IMG/VR virus record: IMGVR_UViG_2974574300_000001
Span: 20,420-84,419 of that record
Source of the DNA: a virus
Lineage: Duplodnaviria > Heunggongvirae > Uroviricota > Caudoviricetes
DNA length: 64,000 nt
Reading direction: 5' to 3' (one strand)
Under the pieces are notes generated by a model. The model saw only the letters and a program-made list of their open reading frames with translations, was not told the DNA's origin and did not search any database. The translations under genes were made by a program, and so were the position numbers. Every line of letters begins with the position of its first letter. The first letter of the stretch is position 1. This document shows positions 9,532 through 57,951 of the stretch, piece by piece.

Positions 9532-9897
9532 ATGAAGTGGCTAGAGGAAGCTTTTAAAAATAATATTGGTGCAATTGTTGTTGGTATTTTTAGTGTTATT
9601 GGGATGTATACCACGATGCAAGTTTCAAGTGGTAAGCAAGAAGTGTCTGTCACAACAAAGTTACAGCAGCTAGATAATTATTCCAGAAGTAACTATTCAG
9701 CTATTCGTGATTTACAGTCTGACATGAGACTGATTCAGCTAGGGATGGAGAACCAGAAAGTTCAGTTAGAGAATGTTAAGGGTGAAAACGCAAAACTTAC
9801 CAAAACCCTTGATAAATTCTCTGACAGTGTAAATAATCTGGCTCAATCAGTATCAGCCCTCCAAGCTATTACTGAGAAGAACACAAAAGAACACTGA
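9532..9897 (+). CDS. membrane-anchored coiled-coil protein
   Basis: 121 aa; N-terminal TM (IGAIVVGIFSVIGMY) then coiled-coil-like region. Confidence 0.35.
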   Translation: MKWLEEAFKNNIGAIVVGIFSVIGMYTTMQVSSGKQEVSVTTKLQQLDNYSRSNYSAIRDLQSDMRLIQLGMENQKVQLENVKGENAKLTKTLDKFSDSVNNLAQSVSALQAITEKNTKEH

Positions 9898-20124: not shown

Positions 20125-20154
20125 ACATTACTGCAAAAAATTATAAAAAGCAAG

Positions 20155-20183
20155 TTGACAATACACTTGACAAGGTGTTAATC
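20155..20183 (+). promoter_or_regulatory. sigma70-like promoter in divergent intergenic region
   Basis: ttgaca-N17-ttaatc; a second ttgacaagg box lies inside the spacer. Confidence 0.3.
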
Positions 20184-20350
20184 TTTGCGAAGTGGGTTTT
20201 TACTTAAAAGGTTACTTAACAGTTTAACTATACAGATACTTTAAAACTCTTAAAAGATTATTTAATAGCTTTTAAAAAGCTTTAAAGTATAACGTATAGA
20301 ATACGTTAAGATAAAAGATTAAACTTAATAGTTACTTAAAAGAGGCTTAC

Positions 20351-51458: not shown

Positions 51459-51665
51459 ATGCTTTACAGTCGTGAATTGATGGCTACAACTAACGTTAAC
51501 ACAAATGCAAAACGTTTTTACATGCAAATTTGTGGCGTATGGTCTAGAATATCAGAAGCTGACTATTGCAACTATGTAGAAACAGCTATAAACTCTAATT
51601 GCTACCTTACAAGAAATACTAAGAAGTTTACAAGGCAAACAGCGATTTACTATTACGATAAATAA
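51459..51665 (+). CDS. small early-type protein
   Basis: 68 aa; ATG with ctggag RBS. Confidence 0.4.
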   Translation: MLYSRELMATTNVNTNAKRFYMQICGVWSRISEADYCNYVETAINSNCYLTRNTKKFTRQTAIYYYDK

Positions 51666-51753
51666 AAAGTACTTTACATGGGGCTTAAAAGTCTGTAAAG
51701 TAAGCCCCAGATAAAGAGCTTTACCACTCAATCCTAAATTGGAGAACTTAAAA
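51666..51753 (+). promoter_or_regulatory. cassette A copy 1 (stem-loop plus conserved leader)
   Basis: ctttacatggggcttaaaagtctgtaaagtaagccccagataaagagctttaccactcaatcctaaattggag then ATG. Confidence 0.5.
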
Positions 51754-52134
51754 ATGGCATACCGCGCACCGAAATTCATCAATAAAGAAAATTTTCGTAA
51801 TGTATTAGAGAAGGCGCTTGATGAAAAATTTAACGGCAAAATAATTGTTGTTCACTCGTTCAATTTCAAGTATGATATCAACGGGAATAAAATCAACCAT
51901 TACACGGCAACCATGTTAGATGGCACTCTTTCAAGTGAAAAAACAATTCTCCATGCACTTGCTGGACGTGGAAAAAACCTGATAAGATGCGATAAGAGAC
52001 GTTATCAAGGTGGCGCATATGGTTATGATGATGCTATTTATCATCTTGAAAATATGGGCTATCAAGTAGAAAAAGCTGGAGTATCACAAATCATCGGGAG
52101 TGATGGTTATGTAACAACTTTCAAAATTAGATAA
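51754..52134 (+). CDS. small early-type protein
   Basis: 126 aa from ATG after the cassette (track start 51739 is an alternative start inside the cassette). Confidence 0.4.
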   Translation: MAYRAPKFINKENFRNVLEKALDEKFNGKIIVVHSFNFKYDINGNKINHYTATMLDGTLSSEKTILHALAGRGKNLIRCDKRRYQGGAYGYDDAIYHLENMGYQVEKAGVSQIIGSDGYVTTFKIR

Positions 52135-52223
52135 TAAAGTACTTTACAGGGGGCTTATAGTTCAATAAAGTAAGCCCCAGATAAAGAGCTTTACCACTAA
52201 ATCCTAAATTGGAGATTCAAAAA
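52135..52223 (+). promoter_or_regulatory. cassette A copy 2
   Basis: ctttacagggggcttatagttcaataaagtaagccccagataaagagctttaccactaaatcctaaattggag. Confidence 0.5.
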
Positions 52224-52514
52224 ATGGCTATTATCAAAAACGTTGTAATTCCTGCAAAAACTCGTGATGACGCTCGCATCATGGCGAAAAAGTTAGGCGG
52301 GAAAGTGGTTGACAATGGGAAACAATCTGCTGTAAGGTGGGGCGTGAAGGTTGATAAACAGTTGAAGTTAAAAAATTCACCAATAAACCTTTTTACATGT
52401 GTAAACACTATCGGGAAGACAAATGTATACACGAAAAAGGCATATATTAGACGCGTAGCCTTAACATCTCCCATTCGTACAATGAGAAGCTATGCAAAGC
52501 TAAAAATTAACTGA
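52224..52514 (+). CDS. small early-type protein
   Basis: 96 aa from ATG at 52224 (track 52209 trimmed). Confidence 0.4.
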   Translation: MAIIKNVVIPAKTRDDARIMAKKLGGKVVDNGKQSAVRWGVKVDKQLKLKNSPINLFTCVNTIGKTNVYTKKAYIRRVALTSPIRTMRSYAKLKIN

Positions 52515-52601
52515 TAAAGTACTTTACAGGGGGCTTAAAAGTTGATATCTTAAGCCCCAGATAAAGAGCTTTACCACTAAATCCTAAATTGGAGATTCAA
52601 A
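52515..52601 (+). promoter_or_regulatory. cassette A copy 3
   Basis: ctttacagggggcttaaaagttgatatcttaagccccagataaagagctttaccactaaatcctaaattggag. Confidence 0.5.
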
Positions 52602-53114
52602 ATGAAAAATGTAGACGCTACCTTTGAAGTTGTAAAAGAAAAATTTTCCATCATCTACGAAGCGGTAAATTGCTATGAAGCAAGCCATAATCTTGATAAT
52701 TGGAAGTTTACAGATGACCATCAAGGCGGCGTGACTGTTAAAAATCCTAACTGTCAGTATAATGAATTTAAATATGCAATCCCTTTGCATTACAGCCTTA
52801 AACAGCTTTCAAGTGACTATGCAAAACAAGGCCGGGAAAATCCATCAAAAGATGCTTACATTAGCTTACAGAAAGAATTAGAAAGAGATTTAGAGGCTTC
52901 AGAATACGACCTTGCCGCGAAAGTTGTCGATGCAAATGGCAACACGGTTTTAGAGAGTTTTTATCTAGGATATGCCTTTGACTGGTGCTATAGTGACGGT
53001 GATGATTTAGAGGAAAGACTAAAAGAAGAGGTGAGCAATTCAGACGCAGAAACTGAAGTATTAGAACGTTTGGAATCATTAAAAGACTCAGTGATGAATA
53101 TCTTTAAGAACTAA
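52602..53114 (+). CDS. small early-type protein, acidic
   Basis: 170 aa ORF directly after cassette A copy 3. Confidence 0.4.
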   Translation: MKNVDATFEVVKEKFSIIYEAVNCYEASHNLDNWKFTDDHQGGVTVKNPNCQYNEFKYAIPLHYSLKQLSSDYAKQGRENPSKDAYISLQKELERDLEASEYDLAAKVVDANGNTVLESFYLGYAFDWCYSDGDDLEERLKEEVSNSDAETEVLERLESLKDSVMNIFKN

Positions 53115-53200
53115 AGAGATTTCTTTACACGGGGTTATCAAGCTGATAAGATAGCCCCAGATAAAGAGATTTATCAACTGTCCTAAACTGGAGATTCAAA
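53115..53200 (+). promoter_or_regulatory. cassette A copy 4 (diverged)
   Basis: ctttacacggggttatcaagctgataagatagccccagataaagagatttatcaactgtcctaaactggag. Confidence 0.45.
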
Positions 53201-53497
53201 ATGAAATTATCAAATAAAGTTCGTGAAAATCTAAGCAAGTTACTAAACAAAATTGATTTCATTGAAACATCAAGGAATAATCATGATGTTATGGAATGGT
53301 TACATGGAAAAATAAAAGGCCGTCGTGTAGTGATTTGCTTATGGAATAGTTGCAGGGAGTATAAAAAACCTGTATTGCAAGTCAATATTTATGATGACAC
53401 TTTTAAAAGTCCAGTAAAGTCTAAAAGCGATTTATTAGAATCCTATGAGATAACTGTAAATGGCAAAGTATCACGTAAAGAGGAAACACCATGTTAA
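53201..53497 (+). CDS. small early-type protein
   Basis: 98 aa ORF after cassette A copy 4. Confidence 0.4.
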   Translation: MKLSNKVRENLSKLLNKIDFIETSRNNHDVMEWLHGKIKGRRVVICLWNSCREYKKPVLQVNIYDDTFKSPVKSKSDLLESYEITVNGKVSRKEETPC

Positions 53498-53823
53498 TGA
53501 CTGGTATCACTGCAATCATTGCCATTTTCGCGCTATATAAGGCATATAAAGCCTATAATCTAGCAAATAAGGCAATCACGCAACAGGTTAGCAATAGCCT
53601 TGTAGAGAGCTTTCTAGAGCGCCTCAGTGATGAGCAAATAAAGCGGCTAGAGATGAGCTTCAGATATAAAGCGAAAACCTATCAGATAAGTGACATCTTC
53701 AAAGATGATTTTCAGTTAGTCGATGATTATAATTCACTGATAAATGCTTTAAATATCAGTGACTTAAAAGACTACTACGCTGTAATTGTTCAAGAATTGA
53801 GCAAACGAAAACAAAGTGTTTGA
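53491..53823 (+). CDS. small early-type protein
   Basis: 110 aa; start overlaps upstream stop; hydrophobic N-terminus. Confidence 0.4.
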   Translation: MLMTGITAIIAIFALYKAYKAYNLANKAITQQVSNSLVESFLERLSDEQIKRLEMSFRYKAKTYQISDIFKDDFQLVDDYNSLINALNISDLKDYYAVIVQELSKRKQSV

Positions 53824-53913
53824 CACTGGTTTTTAGATAGATTAAATTACACATCAACGGGGAGGGAATGACCTTCCCCACTAAATAAAGTCCTTAAACT
53901 AGGAGAGTCTAAA
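53820..53913 (+). promoter_or_regulatory. cassette B copy 1: sigma70-like promoter, leader stem-loop, RBS
   Basis: ttgaca-ctggtttttagatagat-taaatt, then ggggagggaatgaccttcccc hairpin and aggag before ATG 53914. Confidence 0.55.
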
Positions 53914-54186
53914 ATGTATACTACTAACAATGGTCGTACTTTAAATGTAACTTTACGTCACTATGTAGACGGTGTAATGCACTTTGAGGATTTACGGGCT
54001 GAACAACATATCTTAGATTGGCAAGTAGCAGGACTCCAAAAAACTGCTACGGGATACGGTAAAAAGATTCCAACCAGTTGGAAAGTACACTACGAAGGAC
54101 GTTTGCGCAGAATTTATCAAGATGTATGTAGTAATAGTGCATCAAGTTACATCATAGTAAAAGGTAAAAAGCTGCATTTAGTATAA
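53914..54186 (+). CDS. small early-type protein
   Basis: 90 aa ORF after cassette B. Confidence 0.4.
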   Translation: MYTTNNGRTLNVTLRHYVDGVMHFEDLRAEQHILDWQVAGLQKTATGYGKKIPTSWKVHYEGRLRRIYQDVCSNSASSYIIVKGKKLHLV

Positions 54187-54271
54187 AGTACTTTACAAGG
54201 GGCTTAAAAGTCTGTAAAGTAAGCCCCAGATAAAGAGCTTTACCACTAAATCCTAAATTGGAGATTCTAAA
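54187..54271 (+). promoter_or_regulatory. cassette A copy 5
   Basis: ctttacaaggggcttaaaagtctgtaaagtaagccccagataaagagctttaccactaaatcctaaattggag. Confidence 0.5.
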
Positions 54272-54676
54272 ATGGCTATTAACAACCGTGAATTAGCAAT
54301 CTTAAAAGCACGTTTGACCGTTAACCGGATTAATGTTATTACGTCATCAGCACCGGATGAAACATTGCATAACATTATTGGGAAGATTCAAAGTGTTATC
54401 TTAGACGTTGAAAATGTAAAAAGCTCATTGGCTGACGTTGCAGCAGGTATCACGCTAGACGGCGCACAATATGAAATGTCCGACATGTTAGGCAAATCAA
54501 AGGTAATGAATAAAGAATTAGACTTGAAAATGTTTCGATTTGCTGTCAAAGTGTGGCTATCTGTCGAGTATGACGCTAATTTTGCAATCGCTGATTTCTT
54601 TGCCACTTGGTTACAACGTAATTTGACAAATCACGATTTTCGTGATGTCTGTGATGCAATTTATGCAGAACTCTAA
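54272..54676 (+). CDS. small early-type protein
   Basis: 134 aa ORF after cassette A copy 5. Confidence 0.4.
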   Translation: MAINNRELAILKARLTVNRINVITSSAPDETLHNIIGKIQSVILDVENVKSSLADVAAGITLDGAQYEMSDMLGKSKVMNKELDLKMFRFAVKVWLSVEYDANFAIADFFATWLQRNLTNHDFRDVCDAIYAEL

Positions 54677-54684
54677 AAATTTTG

Positions 54685-54779
54685 TTGACACTGGTTTTTA
54701 TATAGATTAAATTACTAATCAACGGGGAGGGAATGACCTTCCCTACTAAATAAAGTCCTTAAACTAGGAGATTCTAAAA
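54685..54779 (+). promoter_or_regulatory. cassette B copy 2: promoter, leader stem-loop, RBS
   Basis: ttgaca-ctggtttttatatagat-taaatt, then ggggagggaatgaccttccc hairpin and aggag. Confidence 0.55.
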
Positions 54780-55127
54780 ATGGCTTATGTAACCGTAATT
54801 ACTGATAAAGCTGGCGCATCTTGGTCAACTCAGGTTAGTGATAAGATGTCACCTATGCAGTGTCTAAAATACTTTGAGCAATGGAATAAAGGCGAAGATG
54901 TAAGCCCCTTTCAAGTGATGCAGGTTATCCATGTAGATAACGAAGGGAATAAAACGACCTTAAATAGTGAGTACTACGCAAGCCGTTTTGAAACGAGAAG
55001 TAAAGCAATGAAGCTCTTACGTGAGGCCGGATATGGTCACATTGCCGCGATAATCTGGGATGACCTTCTAAAAAGTCAACGTATCAGCTATGTAAAACCT
55101 GAAAAATATTCATCAGTTAATCAATAA
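54780..55127 (+). CDS. small early-type protein
   Basis: 115 aa ORF after cassette B copy 2. Confidence 0.4.
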   Translation: MAYVTVITDKAGASWSTQVSDKMSPMQCLKYFEQWNKGEDVSPFQVMQVIHVDNEGNKTTLNSEYYASRFETRSKAMKLLREAGYGHIAAIIWDDLLKSQRISYVKPEKYSSVNQ

Positions 55128-55152
55128 CTTACAAAAAACTTTTAAAAAATTG

Positions 55153-55343
55153 TTGACAATACCCCTTGACATTGGTAACTTTGTTCGAGGGGGTTTATCT
55201 AAAAGGGATTCACTTAAAAGATTCTTTATAGATAAGCTTAAAAAATTGCTTGCAATCAGCTATCAAAAATCTGTAAATTACTAATCAACGGGGAGGCGAT
55301 AACCTCCCCACTAAATAAAACCCTTAAACTAGGAGATTCTAAA
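55153..55343 (+). promoter_or_regulatory. cassette B copy 3 (extended): tandem ttgaca boxes, then B-type -10/stem-loop/RBS
   Basis: ttgacaataccccttgacattgg; later ttgcaa-N18-taaatt, ggggaggcgataacctcccc hairpin, aggag before ATG 55344. Confidence 0.45.
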
Positions 55344-55592
55344 ATGGCTACTATCCGCGCAACTGTTAACGAATTTGGCTTCTACTCTCTGGATGTTAAA
55401 TTTGACATTGCAGGCACTGATAACGCCTTTGAAATGGTGAAAGGCCTTATCAGTCAGACCATCAAAGATTATAATCCTTCGGATGAGTTCTGGGAGGAAA
55501 CAAAACAAGAAGTTCTCAAGGATGGCTATACTTATCACTATTGGGGAGAAAAAATCGTCTCCCTGTACTACAATAAACAAGATTATAACTAA
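55344..55592 (+). CDS. small early-type protein
   Basis: 82 aa ORF, last of the cassette-framed array. Confidence 0.4.
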   Translation: MATIRATVNEFGFYSLDVKFDIAGTDNAFEMVKGLISQTIKDYNPSDEFWEETKQEVLKDGYTYHYWGEKIVSLYYNKQDYN

Positions 55593-55612: not shown

Positions 55613-55637
55613 AGCCCCTTCATAGGGGCTTTTTTAC
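55613..55637 (+). terminator. rho-independent terminator ending the small-ORF array
   Basis: agcccct-tcat-aggggct followed by tttttt. Confidence 0.6.
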
Positions 55638-55978
55638 GTCTATCGAATCTTTATACAATCCCTTTTCCTCGCCTTTCTAGAATCTTACTAGACCTTAAAA
55701 AGCAATAACTCTATAGCCTACTCTATAGCCTTTTATCAAATCAACTTAAATATAAGCCATAACCCGAAAGGGAAGGGCAACCACTAAAACGCTCTATAAC
55801 GCTCTATAACAGCCTTATCAACCTAACTTAAGCAATCATATTAACCCACCCTAAAAAGCCCTTTATAAAGCTTCTTAGAGCCTTAAAAGAATCTTATAAG
55901 GGTGTAAGCTTTATTATCTCGTTAGTTATCTTGTGAACTACTAAAAAGGGCTTGGTAGCTCCTTTAAAGTATGTTATA

Positions 55979-56133
55979 GGGGCTATGAAGTTACTTCAAA
56001 GTAACGTAAAAGGGGCTTAAAAGTTACTTCAAAGTAACGTAAAAGGGGCTATGAAGTTACTTCAAAGTAACGTAAAAGGGGCTTAAAAGTTACTTCAAAG
56101 TAACGTAAAAGAGGTTATAAAGTTACGTAAATG
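55979..56133. repeat. tandem array of a 33 bp unit (4 full copies plus a partial), each with a short palindrome
   Basis: ggggct(atgaa/taaaa)gttacttcaaagtaacgtaaaa repeated; internal inverted repeat gttac-ttcaaa-gtaac. Confidence 0.7.
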
Positions 56134-56141
56134 CTAGCCCC

Positions 56142-56193
56142 CTTAACATTTTCTTAACATTTTCTTAACATTTTCTTAACATTTTCTTAACAA
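56142..56193. repeat. 11 bp tandem repeat, about 4.7 copies
   Basis: cttaacatttt repeated head-to-tail. Confidence 0.7.
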
Positions 56194-56222
56194 ATCCTAC
56201 ATAGTTATGCTTTTAAGCAACT

Positions 56223-56752
56223 TGTTAGCCCCTTGTTAAATCTCTGTTAAGACCACGTAAAAGCCTTGTAAGAGTCTTTGACATAGCCTTAAAAGCCCCT
56301 GTAAAGCCCTATAAAGAGCTATCCGTACAGTTGAGGGGTAAATACTAGGAAGAGACTTAAAAGAGCCTATAAAGAGCTATAGAGGGCTTTTAAGAGGTAT
56401 GTTTAAGGAATCACTAAGAAAGGAAAGGGAACGATAAGAAAGAAGAGTTGTGTTTGTAAACAACCACTGTGACCATGTTAATAGCTTGTTAAAAAGATTA
56501 AACACTTGTTAGGAACTTGTTAATTATCTTAACAAAATAACTCTTTAAAATTAACTAATTAACTCTTGTTAGTCATCTGTTAAGCCTCTGTAAAGACTAT
56601 GTATCAACTGTTAAGAAACTGTTACACCCTTGTTAGTTCTGTTAAGAATCTGTTAAGACCTTTGAAGAGTTGTTAAGAAGATGTGAGAACTGTTAAGAGA
56701 TTGTTAAGGATATTTTAAAATTCTGCAAAGGGGGTGTTAAGGGGCTGTTAAG
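56223..56752. repeat. cluster of TGTTAAG / TGTTAG heptamers (iteron-like), many phased about 11 bp apart
   Basis: at least 17 copies; spacings of 11, 11, 9, 11 and 20, 20, 11 nt between successive copies in 56609-56752. Confidence 0.6.
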
Positions 56753-57125
56753 GGCTACCAAGCAGATATACATCCTCTACAGATATTTTTCAGTTCCTTC
56801 AAAGACCCTAAAAAATGACTTGATAGTCCTATTTTATAAAAATTTTAAAATTCTGAATAATTACCTATACAGTCTTTCTAAAATACAGGTGATAACAGGC
56901 TTATAAGATACCTTGTTAGTACCGTGTTAGACCTTGTGAGATAAGGTCTGTAAAGATATTCCTGTTAAGTTTGTTAAAACAGTCTATATAGAGGCTTAGT
57001 AATACCGAGTGAACACCTATAGAGGGTCACATAGCTAACCTAATGGGTTACTGTTAAGTAACACAGATAACCCAGAGATTAAGAGGTGTATAGGAGCTTC
57101 TAAGAGGGTATAGAGAGGTGGTTAA

Positions 57126-57167
57126 GGTGATTGTATAGGTTGTTAAGGTGATTGTATAGGTTGTTAA
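57126..57167. repeat. perfect 21 bp direct tandem repeat
   Basis: ggtgattgtataggttgttaa x2, flanked by more gttaag motifs. Confidence 0.7.
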
Positions 57168-57363
57168 GATGGCTTGTTAGAGGGCTAGTTAGAAGGGTTA
57201 TACAGAGGGCTATTAAGACCACTAGATAGTTACTAAGATACTATATAGTACTATATAACTATATAGAGAGTAAGATTAAGAAGGTTGTTAAGAAGGATAG
57301 ATATTTTGTTCACATATGATGGTGACCCAGAGGTTGGGACAACCGATAAAATTTTATAAAAAT

Positions 57364-57392
57364 TAAAAAGCCCCCAATTAAGGAGGCTCTTA
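57364..57392 (-). terminator. rho-independent terminator for the minus-strand cluster
   Basis: minus strand reads agcctcc-ttaatt-gggggct followed by ttttaattttt. Confidence 0.5.
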
Positions 57393-57399
57393 AGATATT

Positions 57400-57951
57400 T
57401 TAAATCAGTGTTTCCAGAACTGTTTTTAATGATGACTTGGTTGTCTGATAAAAATGAGTGAATCCATTGTTGTTATCAAATATCTGCATCATAACAGCAT
57501 CTCCCTTGATTGGGTACACTCGGATATCATAGTGAAACCCATTAAAGACACAAGACCCATTACAGAATGCACTAAAGTCATCCACTGAGATATACTCTTC
57601 ATGACCTGTGATTTTTATACAGACACCTTTACTTGGTCTCTTAGGGTTGATATCTTCCATCACAGACATACTCTGTCCACCAAGAGATACCATCGTGACC
57701 ACTTTACGGTTCTTCTGTTTAAAGTACATTTTAACTTTCTGTAAAGTGTCTTCATAGAACGGATAAGACTTTTCTACAAAGATTCCTTCAAGTGGCTCTT
57801 TACCATTTCTAACTTCTCTGATATGTCGTACTGAGAAAATAAGTTGCTCTAGTATGTCAAGACTTTCTTTGGAGAGTGCTTCTCGAACATCACTCCAATC
57901 AAGAACTAGGTAGTTACCTTCAACTTCTTTTACATCCATAAGCTCTTTCAT
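57400..57951 (-). CDS. hypothetical protein
   Basis: 183 aa ORF; no confident motif. Confidence 0.4.
   Translation of the reverse strand: MKELMDVKEVEGNYLVLDWSDVREALSKESLDILEQLIFSVRHIREVRNGKEPLEGIFVEKSYPFYEDTLQKVKMYFKQKNRKVVTMVSLGGQSMSVMEDINPKRPSKGVCIKITGHEEYISVDDFSAFCNGSCVFNGFHYDIRVYPIKGDAVMMQIFDNNNGFTHFYQTTKSSLKTVLETLI

Follow-up and report, generated by a model that had tools for sequence, protein, structure and literature searches.

Mirror-image boundaries and a phased heptamer array at the probable genome-end junction of a Felixounavirus

Chromosome ends of Felix O1-type phages and the non-coding region

The direct terminal repeat (DTR) of Felix O1-type phages is already known. In the sister phage UAB_Phi87, it was mapped experimentally, as a 608 bp repeat, by a combination of Bal31 mapping and run-off sequencing (Bardina et al. 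2016, PMC4837284, Fig. S1), and the Felix O1-like TerL was placed in a DTR cluster of its own (PMC4837284). The termini of two further relatives were called with PhageTerm, yielding DTRs of 580 bp in E9 (PMC11737134) and 581 bp in Pr103Blw (PMC8303462). The published work on these three phages gives the length and sequence of the repeat only, not its motif architecture. Two-site recognition and repeat duplication by terminases that generate short DTRs are poorly understood outside T7.

We analyzed a 64,000-nucleotide stretch (hereafter, the window) of the IMG/VR record IMGVR_UViG_2974574300_000001, which is identified as Felixounavirus, and concentrated on positions 55638-57400. An earlier note on this DNA had described this interval as a candidate replication origin or packaging/regulatory hub. 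The packaging part of that description stands, because the heptamer-rich core of the region corresponds to the DTR and the physical ends, by homology, map inside the interval, so that the 'terminase pac site or genome-end-associated repeats', listed there among the alternatives, was the right choice; the origin part finds no support. The 254 phage records that match the region are all Felix O1-like, except for one that is probably chimeric. The features of the region are as follows.

55613-55630, plus strand: Rho-independent terminator with a 7 bp stem (5 GC pairs) and a T-run, also annotated in AYO145A
55638-56136, unstranded: left flank of the junction, situated directly before the right-hand DTR copy in E9, NBEco005, SPJ41 and SLAM_phiST56
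55709-55808, plus strand: CTCTATA cluster, four copies (55709, 55721, 55792, 55802) of the seven in the window
55978-56126, plus strand: 33 bp tandem array, 4.5 copies with 88% matches (TRF)
56120-56136, plus strand: AAGTTACGTAAATGCTA, just outside the left DTR boundary, the same in the four DTR phages and nearly invariant in three genera
56137-56759, unstranded: DTR of 623 bp, predicted from homology to the repeats of relatives and to the UAB_Phi87 DTR
56142-56192, minus strand: 11 bp tandem array CTTAACATTTT with five CTTAACA (TGTTAAG on the minus strand), 4.6 copies at 100% (TRF)
56223-56752, plus strand: heptamer array, about 25 TGT(T/A)A(A)G sites within the DTR, with count and period conserved in 10 phages
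56760-56800, plus strand: AAGCAGATATACA…CAGATATTTTT, just outside the right DTR boundary, nearly invariant
56760-57365, unstranded: right flank of the junction, situated directly after the left DTR copy in E9 and other DTR phages
56987, 57018, 57109 and 57262: four TATAGAG in the right flank, the mirror partner of the CTCTATA cluster
57116-57168: 21 bp repeat in the right flank, 2.5 copies at 96% (TRF)
57239-57267: ACTATATAG run in the right flank
57366-57391, minus strand: Rho-independent terminator with a 10 bp stem, also annotated in AYO145A

Transcription of the gene blocks on both sides proceeds outward, toward the genome ends, and stops before the junction. The plus-strand hairpin (55613-55630) closes the early-gene block heading to the right genome end, and the minus-strand hairpin (57391-57366) closes the block heading to the left end, in agreement with the convergent terminators that had been described as the bounds of the region. 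Also borne out is the claim that no open reading frame (ORF) of at least 60 aa overlaps 55638-57400, the longest ones being 42 aa and 40 aa. In several GenBank records, short 'hypothetical proteins' are annotated in this region.

These annotations would fit the presence of micro-ORFs that escaped annotation here, or else the region could be a source of small non-coding RNAs, as had also been suggested; indeed, the 33 bp array, as single-stranded DNA, shows a somewhat stronger fold than shuffled sequences (z = -2.85). However, this fold signal comes from tandem palindromes that are not conserved in relatives, and no ORF of at least 35 aa is conserved in position across the 10 phages compared. 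There is no Rfam match to the region (E < 0.1), with sub-threshold hits only on the two terminators, the neighboring transcription units both stop before entering, and promoter-like sites show no enrichment. We consider both the RNA and the micro-ORF explanations extremely unlikely.

The terminal repeat and its boundaries

Four relatives carry exact repeats at both ends of their records, namely, E9 (580 bp), NBEco005 (651 bp), SPJ41 (613 bp) and SLAM_phiST56 (611 bp). The left boundary, AAATGCTA/GCCCCCTTAACA, and the right boundary, TGTTAAGGGCTACC/AAGCAGATA (with the slash at the end of the repeat), are each identical in these four phages and are present in the window; the same holds for TGTTAAGGGCTACC/AAGCAG at the right boundary. 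Among the phages compared, the length of the DTR varies from 559 to 651 bp and the boundary strings are fixed, which argues that sequence, and not distance, determines where the cuts are made. The predicted 623 bp length of the DTR in this phage is due to the 11 bp unit, present in five copies at the left edge as opposed to 2-3 in relatives. The two segments that adjoin the repeat on the outside are candidate recognition contexts, AAGTTACGTAAATGCTA for the left cut and AAGCAGATATACA…CAGATATTTTT for the right cut; the latter segment (56760-56800) is invariant across three genera, save for a 25 bp insertion in some phages.

The experimentally mapped repeat leads to the same place. The 608 bp DTR of UAB_Phi87 aligns over its whole length to positions 56167-56761 of the window, and its run-off ends are 8 nt (left) and 2 nt (right) away from the boundaries shared by the other phages. 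The UAB_Phi87 junction had to be located internally because the GenBank record does not begin at the physical end. The terminal SpeI fragments predicted from this location, 2751 and 4431 bp, agree within about 100 bp with the published Bal31-sensitive bands of 2819 and 4322 bp.

Thus, judging by homology, 55638-57400 would be the site where both physical ends of the Felix O1-type chromosome meet. The left flank (about 0.5 kb) would be unique subterminal DNA of the right genome end, located just inside the right DTR copy in the virion, and the right flank (about 0.64 kb) would be the corresponding DNA of the left end, just inside the left copy. The DTR, which is duplicated at both ends of the DNA of relatives, occurs once here, so that the window apparently represents the concatemer-junction (or collapsed-assembly) form, in which the right-end flank is followed by one DTR copy and the left-end flank.

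Two additional records were considered as evidence of the DTR and set aside: RPN213 has no terminal repeat and is broken arbitrarily at window position 56837/8, and KMM2 shows only a 64 bp assembly overlap, although its record terminates close to the right boundary. The breaks of the humlepung and BPS15Q2 records, located within the 11 bp and 33 bp arrays, are probably assembly artefacts.

The heptamer array and its possible role

The junction is densely populated by heptamers of the TGTTAAG type. The region contains 15 TGTTAAG, whereas the rest of the window would predict 0.44 (about 35-fold enrichment), and about 40 sites of this type in all, with some 35 on the plus strand across the junction and the minus-strand copies confined to the left DTR edge. 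The segment 56223-56752, for which the earlier note counted at least 17 TGTTAAG/TGTTAG, strictly holds 10 exact TGTTAAG and 4 TGTTAG, and reaches that count only if the 5 near-variants, TGTTAA[A/T] or TGTTAC, are included. The spacing of about 11 bp reported for these sites is confirmed, 11 bp being the commonest distance (13 of 35 gaps). Within the DTR, runs at this spacing are interrupted by 9/20 bp corrections, resulting in a mean, long-range period of 10.4 bp, for which the spectral power is 0.33. This is roughly 10 times stronger than in any of the 99 other tiles, which do not exceed 0.023; shuffled sequences reach 0.030.

The array changes strand at the left edge of the repeat. The 11 bp tandem repeat noticed previously (56142-56193) is recovered by TRF with an end one nucleotide shorter, and its unit contains the same heptamer on the opposite strand. 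At the other end, the last two heptamers of the DTR (56735 and 56746) abut the right boundary. Owing to this inversion of the heptamers at the left DTR edge, the cut sites are mirror images of one another, with terminal copies flanking both in mirror orientation; the symmetry is imperfect, with 6 nt separating the cut from the first TTAACA at the left boundary and 8 nt at the right one. The array is not limited to the repeat: further plus-strand TGTTAG/TGTTAAG sites are found in the right flank at 56914-57286. A role purely in marking the boundaries does not explain why, on only one side, the heptamers run for about 500 bp past the DTR. The layout of the terminus, with phased and mirrored motifs, appears to be undescribed.

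The flanks contain additional repeats. The CTCTATA cluster is located 212-440 bp to the left of the DTR in each of the 10 phages that were compared. Each unit of the 33 bp array contains AAGT(T/A)ACGTAAAAGGGGCT, the AAGTTACGTAAA element also found next to the left cut site and the GGGGCTA element of the DTR boundaries, and the unit is complementary to the left DTR boundary. The array had been given as 4.7 copies at 55979-56133, slightly more than TRF delineates, and can also be read as a 66 bp unit in 2.3 copies at 96% (TRF); its copy number differs between phages, with low conservation at 55993-56092. The GTTAC-TTCAAA-GTAAC palindrome described in this array is present but particular to this phage; relatives have AAGTTAC direct repeats in its place. 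We considered the GTTACTTCAAAGTAAC palindrome as a hairpin primer, by analogy with T7, and rejected it as a general feature because the repeats of relatives are direct, not inverted. The 21 bp repeat, previously described as perfect and spanning 57126-57167, is longer and slightly imperfect in the TRF delineation, and the two A/T-only runs, previously given as 56831-56855 and 57341-57366, are present at 56830-56852 and 57346-57369, the second one being the T-tract of the minus-strand terminator.

The junction is conserved well beyond the genus. The non-coding DNA is 80-87% identical (aligned positions) to that of Mooglevirus and Suspvirus, compared to 68-72% for the adjacent genes; in the left flank, the identity to these two genera is 86-87%, and in the right flank, the identity to other genera is 84% (aligned positions in both cases). 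The columns of the heptamer motif are more conserved than the spacers (0.91 vs 0.80), and each phage has 17-22 TGTTA cores, with the count, the enrichment, the 10.4 bp period, the strand polarity and the left-edge inversion kept in 10 phages from three genera. Because this non-coding DNA is more alike than the adjacent genes, and the motif columns more than the spacers, the junction is under functional constraint. A search for distant relatives with a flanking protein retrieved the same approximately 250 records from three genera, with no diverged-motif junction in which co-variation could be tested. The PhageMaP tables for Felixounavirus Bas63 consist of per-gene values and include no intergenic insertions.

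Conservation of non-coding DNA, together with the many same-strand short repeats spaced by about one helical turn and the AT-rich conserved element at 56830-56852, would also be compatible with a replication origin, alone or alongside the terminus function, in which the heptamers are iterons and the A/T-only stretches are unwinding elements, as the earlier note had it. There is a precedent in T7, where secondary origins adjoin the terminal repeat. However, the cumulative GC skew, a measure confounded by gene orientation, has its maximum, not its minimum, at 57-58 kb; the minimum lies at about 20 kb, where the DNA polymerase and primase/helicase blocks diverge. None of the 21 one-mismatch DnaA-box matches in the window falls in 55638-57400, and the seven flanking ORFs encode no Rep, initiator or other recognizable domain, with no Pfam match above the gathering cut-off and a single sub-threshold DUF. 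The second of the putative unwinding elements is a terminator tail, and the exact coincidence of the array with the DTR and its mirror-image boundaries is not expected of an origin. An origin at this site accordingly seems very improbable; the region is most probably a DNA-packaging and end-formation site and not a demonstrated replication origin.

The DTR, single in the assembly, would also be single in replicating concatemers and would be present at both ends in the virion. We infer that the terminase recognizes two sequence-defined mirror sites, with the proposed cuts at 5'-TGCTA^GCCCCCTTAACA in the top strand and 5'-TGCTT^GGTAGCCCTTAACA in the bottom strand. It would cut or nick the opposite strands about 0.6 kb apart, and strand-displacement synthesis through the repeat would then leave every daughter genome with a complete DTR, following the Watson/T7 model. 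The TGTTAAG-type sites, which number approximately 40 and are helically phased and strand-polar, are proposed to form a loading array along with the mirrored CTCTATA/TATAGAG clusters. On this array, a putative DNA-binding packaging factor, equivalent to a small terminase, would contact the DNA from one face and direct the nuclease to both boundaries. TerL of the relative AYO145A is a standard nuclease-ATPase (Terminase_6N/6C); the terminase gene lies outside the 64 kb window. No recognizable small terminase was found adjoining TerL, where the upstream ORF is 66 aa long. Taken as a whole, the terminus, or concatemer junction, of a Felix O1-type genome, coupled with such a terminase mechanism, is very probably the best explanation of the region.

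One could go further and suggest, tentatively, that the Ounavirinae terminus is an undescribed kind of packaging signal, in which the approximately 40 phased heptamers, the inverted copies and the outer clusters nucleate a nucleoprotein wrap on one face of the DNA. Such a wrap, made up of the putative small-terminase equivalent, possibly the 66 aa protein encoded upstream of TerL, would present two mirror nick sites about 0.6 kb apart that define the repeat by sequence. We regard this scenario as possible but doubtful.

Alternatively, the DTR could be correctly identified and the array unrelated to the terminase, serving instead a host nucleoid protein, a phage end-protection or end-synapsis protein or RNA polymerase, or else providing curved DNA for ejection or as the last DNA packaged. 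The lack of a recognizable small terminase, the extension of the sites well past the cut sites into the left-end flank, and the 10.4 bp phasing, which fits any DNA-wrapping protein or intrinsic curvature, are all compatible with this possibility; furthermore, CTTAACA contains the -35-like TTAACA, and a promoter scan picks such hexamers repeatedly. The analogous T7 repeats, to our knowledge, have never been tied to the terminase. Conversely, promoter-like hits are not in excess (11 vs 8.4 ± 3.3 in shuffled sequences), and no IHF, CRP or DnaA consensus is evident. Moreover, the terminal heptamers lie 6-8 nt from both cut sites in mirror orientation, an arrangement that is invariant in three genera and ties at least these copies to end formation. 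On balance, a function of the array separate from the terminase appears unlikely, albeit not far-fetched.

Interpreted as the terminus, the window is a junction-spanning (circularized or collapsed) view of a linear genome with terminal repeats of about 0.6 kb, which matters for genome orientation, length and annotation: many GenBank relatives carry spurious micro-ORFs here or open the genome arbitrarily. The invariant mirror boundaries and the phased array, shared by three genera and about 250 genomes, offer clear cis elements that are ready targets for footprinting and mutagenesis. In the engineering of Felix O1-type phages for therapy or diagnostics, a rebooted or synthetic genome must retain the junction intact.

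Comparison with known terminus, packaging and origin regions

The closest counterpart is the DTR of UAB_Phi87, which by homology is the same element, with boundaries within 2-8 nt, in the same ORF-free gap between convergent gene blocks; the 608 bp length was obtained by run-off sequencing, and the 623 bp length in this phage is predicted from homology. Iteron-type origins of plasmids and lambdoid phages resemble the junction in having direct short repeats at approximately helical-turn spacing near AT-rich DNA. Iterons are usually 17-22 bp long, 3-7 in number, and located beside or within the initiator gene. In contrast, here there is no initiator gene and no DnaA box, the skew is wrong for an origin, and the array coincides with mapped genome ends.

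In multi-site terminase regions, repeated short motifs, often in bent DNA, serve to load the small terminase subunit and to position the nuclease of the large one, as exemplified by the TGATCA/G hexamers on both sides of the cut in P1 pac, the pacL/pacR boxes of SPP1 and the R sites of lambda cosB. In all these cases, motif repeats lie beside the cut, and by analogy, the heptamer array is proposed to act alike. However, those regions have 3-7 sites with demonstrated binding, compared to about 40 candidate sites here, and specify one double-strand cut (initiating a headful series or producing cos ends), whereas two cuts 0.6 kb apart are proposed for this phage.

The junction resembles in layout that of T7, in which a short exact DTR in non-coding DNA is likewise accompanied by a one-strand heptamer array that extends from the right-end flank through the DTR to the left-end flank. 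In the T7 concatemer junction, CCTAAAG occurs 13 times on one strand and 0 times on the other. The short-repeat arrays that flank the T7 terminal repeat were reportedly named SRL and SRR by Dunn and Studier in 1983; a literature search on these names, TGTTAAG and CCTAAAG found nothing relevant, and we know of no proven function of the T7 heptamers. In both phages, packaging is expected to require that the DTR be duplicated. The differences are nevertheless substantial. There is no sequence homology between the two junctions, the motifs are distinct, and the T7 spacing is 13 bp and not helical, as opposed to the 10.4 bp period here. The T7 DTR is 160 bp long, so the DTR of this phage is about four times longer, and T7 lacks inverted copies at the DTR edge, in contrast to the inversion at the left edge here. 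Promoters of the phage RNA polymerase (phiOL, phiOR) and host promoters flank the T7 junction, whereas here both neighboring units read into the junction and promoters are not enriched. Finally, this phage, unlike T7, has a myovirus virion and a TerL of the Terminase_6 type, as judged from a relative. Because the motif and the period differ and there is no promoter enrichment, the junction is an analogue of the T7-type concatemer junction, not a member. If the terminus is indeed a packaging signal of the wrap type, these two heptamer arrays, with the one at the T7 ends as the second case, would represent a general principle of DTR-defining arrays.

Genome ends and the direct terminal repeat

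The records of four Felix O1-like phages carry an exact repeat at both ends (E9, 580 bp, with termini called by PhageTerm, PMC11737134; NBEco005, 651 bp; SPJ41, 613 bp; SLAM_phiST56, 611 bp), with a common left boundary, …AAAGTTACGTAAATGCTA|GCCCCCTTAACA…, and a common right boundary, …GATGTTAAGGGCTACC|AAGCAGATATACA…. Both boundary strings are found in the window, which places a direct terminal repeat (DTR) of 623 bp at 56137-56759, its greater length being due to five 11 bp units compared to three in the relatives. By this sequence comparison, the core of the repeat-dense region 55638-57400 is almost certainly the DTR and hence the genome terminus, so that the window would represent the junction form of the genome. 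Genome-end-associated repeats or a pac site, which the earlier note listed as an alternative to a replication origin or a packaging/regulatory hub, thus move to the fore, given that the DTR boundaries shared with relatives map within the region.

Parts of the junction and its flanking hairpins
55613-55630, + strand, terminator-like hairpin
55638-56136, predicted inner side of the right genome end, by homology to DTR-bearing relatives
56137-56759, predicted DTR, one copy, 623 bp
56760-57365, predicted inner side of the left genome end, by homology to DTR-bearing relatives
57391-57366, - strand, terminator-like hairpin

Independent experimental evidence comes from UAB_Phi87 (Felixounavirus), in which Bal31 digestion marked two SpeI fragments as terminal and the virion DNA yielded a 608 bp DTR on run-off sequencing; its sequence, printed in Figure S1, has AACATTTTCTTAACAA… as the first and …GATGTTAAGGGCTACCAA as the last bases (PMC4837284). 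This published DTR is the same element as that of the window; it aligns as far as 56761, with its left and right ends lying 8 nt and 2 nt, respectively, from the boundaries common to the four relatives. Applied to the UAB_Phi87 record, the common boundaries yield a 614 bp repeat and predict that the terminal SpeI fragments measure 2751 and 4431 bp, compared to the published 2819 and 4322 bp. PhageTerm gave a 581 bp DTR for Pr103Blw (PMC8303462), and 'short terminal repeats' had already been inferred in the Felix O1 genome paper (PMC3185647). The genome terminus and its DTR are already known for the genus, published sequence included.

A database sequence search matched the region to 254 phage records at 76-94% identity, all Felix O1-like myoviruses of Salmonella, Escherichia, Shigella and Citrobacter, with the single exception of a Staphylococcus phage record. 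That record (GU169904.1, Staphylococcus phage SA1, 147 kb) matches the Felixounavirus DTR at 90.8% over 135889-136464, with a matching flanking gene, and is probably chimeric or contaminated. The window keeps the Felix O1 gene order (tail-fibre, DNA ligase, DNA polymerase, primase/helicase, ribonucleotide reductase, NAMPT, rIIA), and both neighbouring gene blocks are transcribed outward to the physical ends, stopping just short of the junction. In many GenBank relatives, the record starts or stops inside the region interval. In the record of Escherichia phage humlepung (MN850564.1), the first 69 nt duplicate positions 63-131 in inverted orientation, and the last bases fall within the 11 bp array; the BPS15Q2 record breaks in the 33 bp array. 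These features look like assembly artefacts caused by the physical end together with the tandem repeats.

Content and conservation of the junction

Much of the earlier description of the region holds. No ORF of at least 60 aa overlaps 55638-57400 (the longest are 42 and 40 aa), and the convergent terminators are represented by terminator-like hairpins on both sides, each also annotated in the relative AYO145A. Tandem Repeats Finder recovered the 33 bp array at 55978-56126 (4.5 copies), the 11 bp repeat as a perfect array of CTTAACATTTT at 56142-56192 (4.6 copies), and the 21 bp repeat at 57116-57168. The array of 33 bp units to the left of the DTR reiterates two elements, AAGTTACGTAAA, which adjoins the proposed left cut, and GGGGCTA, which is part of the boundaries; the palindrome noticed in this array is a real feature of the sequence but is specific to this phage. 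The second of two supposed A/T-only elements is actually the T-tract of the minus-strand terminator. Two further strings recur: TTTTAAAATTCTG at 56713-56727, inside the DTR, and at 56841-56855, 80 bp past its right boundary; and TTTTATAAAAATT at 56832-56844 and again at 57352-57364, in the minus-strand terminator tail.

We aligned ten junctions from Felixounavirus (the window, FM4b, Felix O1, AYO145A, E9, NBEco005), Mooglevirus (Mijalis, Sf17, KMM2), and Suspvirus (SUSP1). The left and right boundary contexts are nearly invariant across the three genera, whereas the phages compared have DTRs of anywhere between 559 and 651 bp, which indicates that the ends are set by sequence rather than by measured distance. 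All ten junctions contain 17-22 TGTTA cores per DTR with a 10.4 bp period, 2-5 inverted heptamers at the left DTR edge, four copies of CTCTATA to the left of the DTR at a distance of 212-440 bp, and 3-4 copies of its reverse complement, TATAGAG, to the right at a distance of 227-506 bp; the region holds 9 of the 14 copies of these two motifs in the 64 kb window. At aligned positions, identity to Mooglevirus/Suspvirus is 86-87% in the left flank, 80% in the DTR, and 84% in the right flank, compared to only 68-72% for the protein-coding genes on either side and 47-54% for the downstream protein. Within the DTR, conservation is 0.91 in motif columns versus 0.80 in spacers, and no small ORF is conserved in position among the junctions compared. 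Together, these patterns show that purifying selection acts on the entire 1.7 kb as cis-acting DNA. Given this lack of a conserved ORF, the absence of Rfam hits in the region and of any enrichment of promoter-like sites there, the suggested source of small non-coding RNAs, or one of micro-ORFs, is very improbable. Non-conserved micro-ORFs are annotated within the junction in several other relatives' records.

Repeated intergenic cassettes lie amid small plus-strand genes at 51653-55344. They look like early promoter/terminator modules; in Felix O1, their counterparts are the published 57 bp and 39 bp repeats (PMC3185647).

Intergenic cassettes
51653, 52123, 52503, 54172: ~100 nt, four copies; GGGGCTTAAAAG…TAAGCCCC hairpin, then AGATAAAGAGCTTTACCACT
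53820, 54685, 55250: ~95 nt, three copies; sigma-70-like TTGACA-N17-TAGATT promoter, GGGGAGGG…CCTTCCCC hairpin, ribosome-binding site

Heptamer array, mirrored boundaries, and packaging

The 1.76 kb region contains 15 copies of TGTTAAG, where the density of this motif in the remaining 62 kb of the window would predict 0.44. Close variants included, ~35 plus-strand heptamers span 56223-57286; on the minus strand, the only notable sites are a single copy at 56528 and the five CTTAACA copies within the 11 bp array. The array reported earlier is therefore present, but with 14 exact TGTTAAG/TGTTAG copies in 56223-56752 instead of at least 17. The claimed spacing of about 11 bp is indeed the commonest, and interruptions by steps of 9 or 20 bp bring the long-range period to 10.4 bp. 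The spectral power of this period is 0.33, whereas the highest value reached is 0.023 among 99 other tiles of 623 bp from the window and 0.030 among shuffles.

The two DTR boundaries are mirror images when read inward along the strand whose 5' end is created: 5'-TGCTA^GCCCCCTTAACA-N4-CTTAACA on the left and 5'-TGCTT^GGTAGCCCTTAACA-N4-CTTAACA on the right. Short exact DTRs arise from concatemers with one repeat copy per junction, as established for T7-like phages, where this route is said to have been described by Watson in 1972 and by Chung and Hinkle in 1990; the repeat thus needs to be duplicated during packaging. On the simplest reading of the mirror symmetry, the terminase nuclease would be positioned twice, in opposite orientations, with one nick at 56136/56137 in the top strand and the other at 56760/56759 in the bottom strand, and strand-displacement synthesis from both 3'-OH ends across the 623 bp would provide each genome with a full DTR copy. 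The helically phased, strand-polar heptamers would form a putative loading array for a DNA-binding packaging factor on one helix face, and the mirrored outer motifs (CTCTATA/TATAGAG) could belong to the same putative complex. We rate the chances of this specific mechanism (two opposite nicks, strand displacement, heptamer loading array) as about even; the overall account, which joins the terminus identity to these steps in conditional form, is highly likely to hold. A serious, if rather unlikely, alternative is that the interior and right-flank heptamers bind a factor other than terminase.

With regard to the terminase in the proposed packaging mechanism, the large subunit (TerL) is encoded outside the window and in AYO145A is a standard Terminase_6N/6C protein; no recognisable small subunit (TerS) is annotated in the Felix O1-like group. 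Directly upstream of TerL in AYO145A, where the TerS gene is expected, lies orf052 (66 aa, 9551-9751 of its record), a small conserved protein (phrog_4397) with no Pfam family.

A replication origin, in addition to or instead of a terminus, appears improbable. The array bears only a superficial resemblance to iteron origins, there is no DnaA box in the region, none of the flanking ORFs has a recognisable domain, and the cumulative GC skew peaks at 57-58 kb with a minimum near 20 kb, the opposite of an origin signature, although gene orientation confounds this pattern. The skew minimum coincides with a 226 bp divergent gap (20125-20350) that separates DNA polymerase (-) from the plus-strand block running on to primase/helicase; this gap is a more plausible origin site than the junction.

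Comparison with known packaging systems

In the accessible parts of the literature on Felixounavirus and the DTR, no description of the motif phasing, mirror-image cut sites, or flank symmetry is evident, so this seems to be a new description of a known kind of element. Although unsurprising to a specialist, the region offers a clean and useful model of site choice by short-DTR terminases.

The T7 concatemer junction, which we rebuilt from NC_001604 with its 160 bp DTR for motif counting, has an analogous architecture, with 13 copies of CCTAAAG on one strand and none on the other: two lie to the left of the DTR, three within it, and eight to its right, mostly at 13 bp intervals. The two junctions nevertheless share no sequence homology and differ in repeat period, and, unlike the window junction, that of T7 lacks inverted copies at a DTR edge and is flanked by promoters; the window junction is thus an analogue of the T7 type and does not belong to it. 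TATAG(A/G)G-type and CTTAGAG/CTAAGAG-type strings occur near the terminal repeat in both T7 and the window (56987-57270), which may reflect chance or a shared requirement. The multi-site terminase recognition regions P1 pac, SPP1 pac, and lambda cosB could serve as a functional model for the window array, although each directs a single cut, unlike the two proposed at the window DTR.
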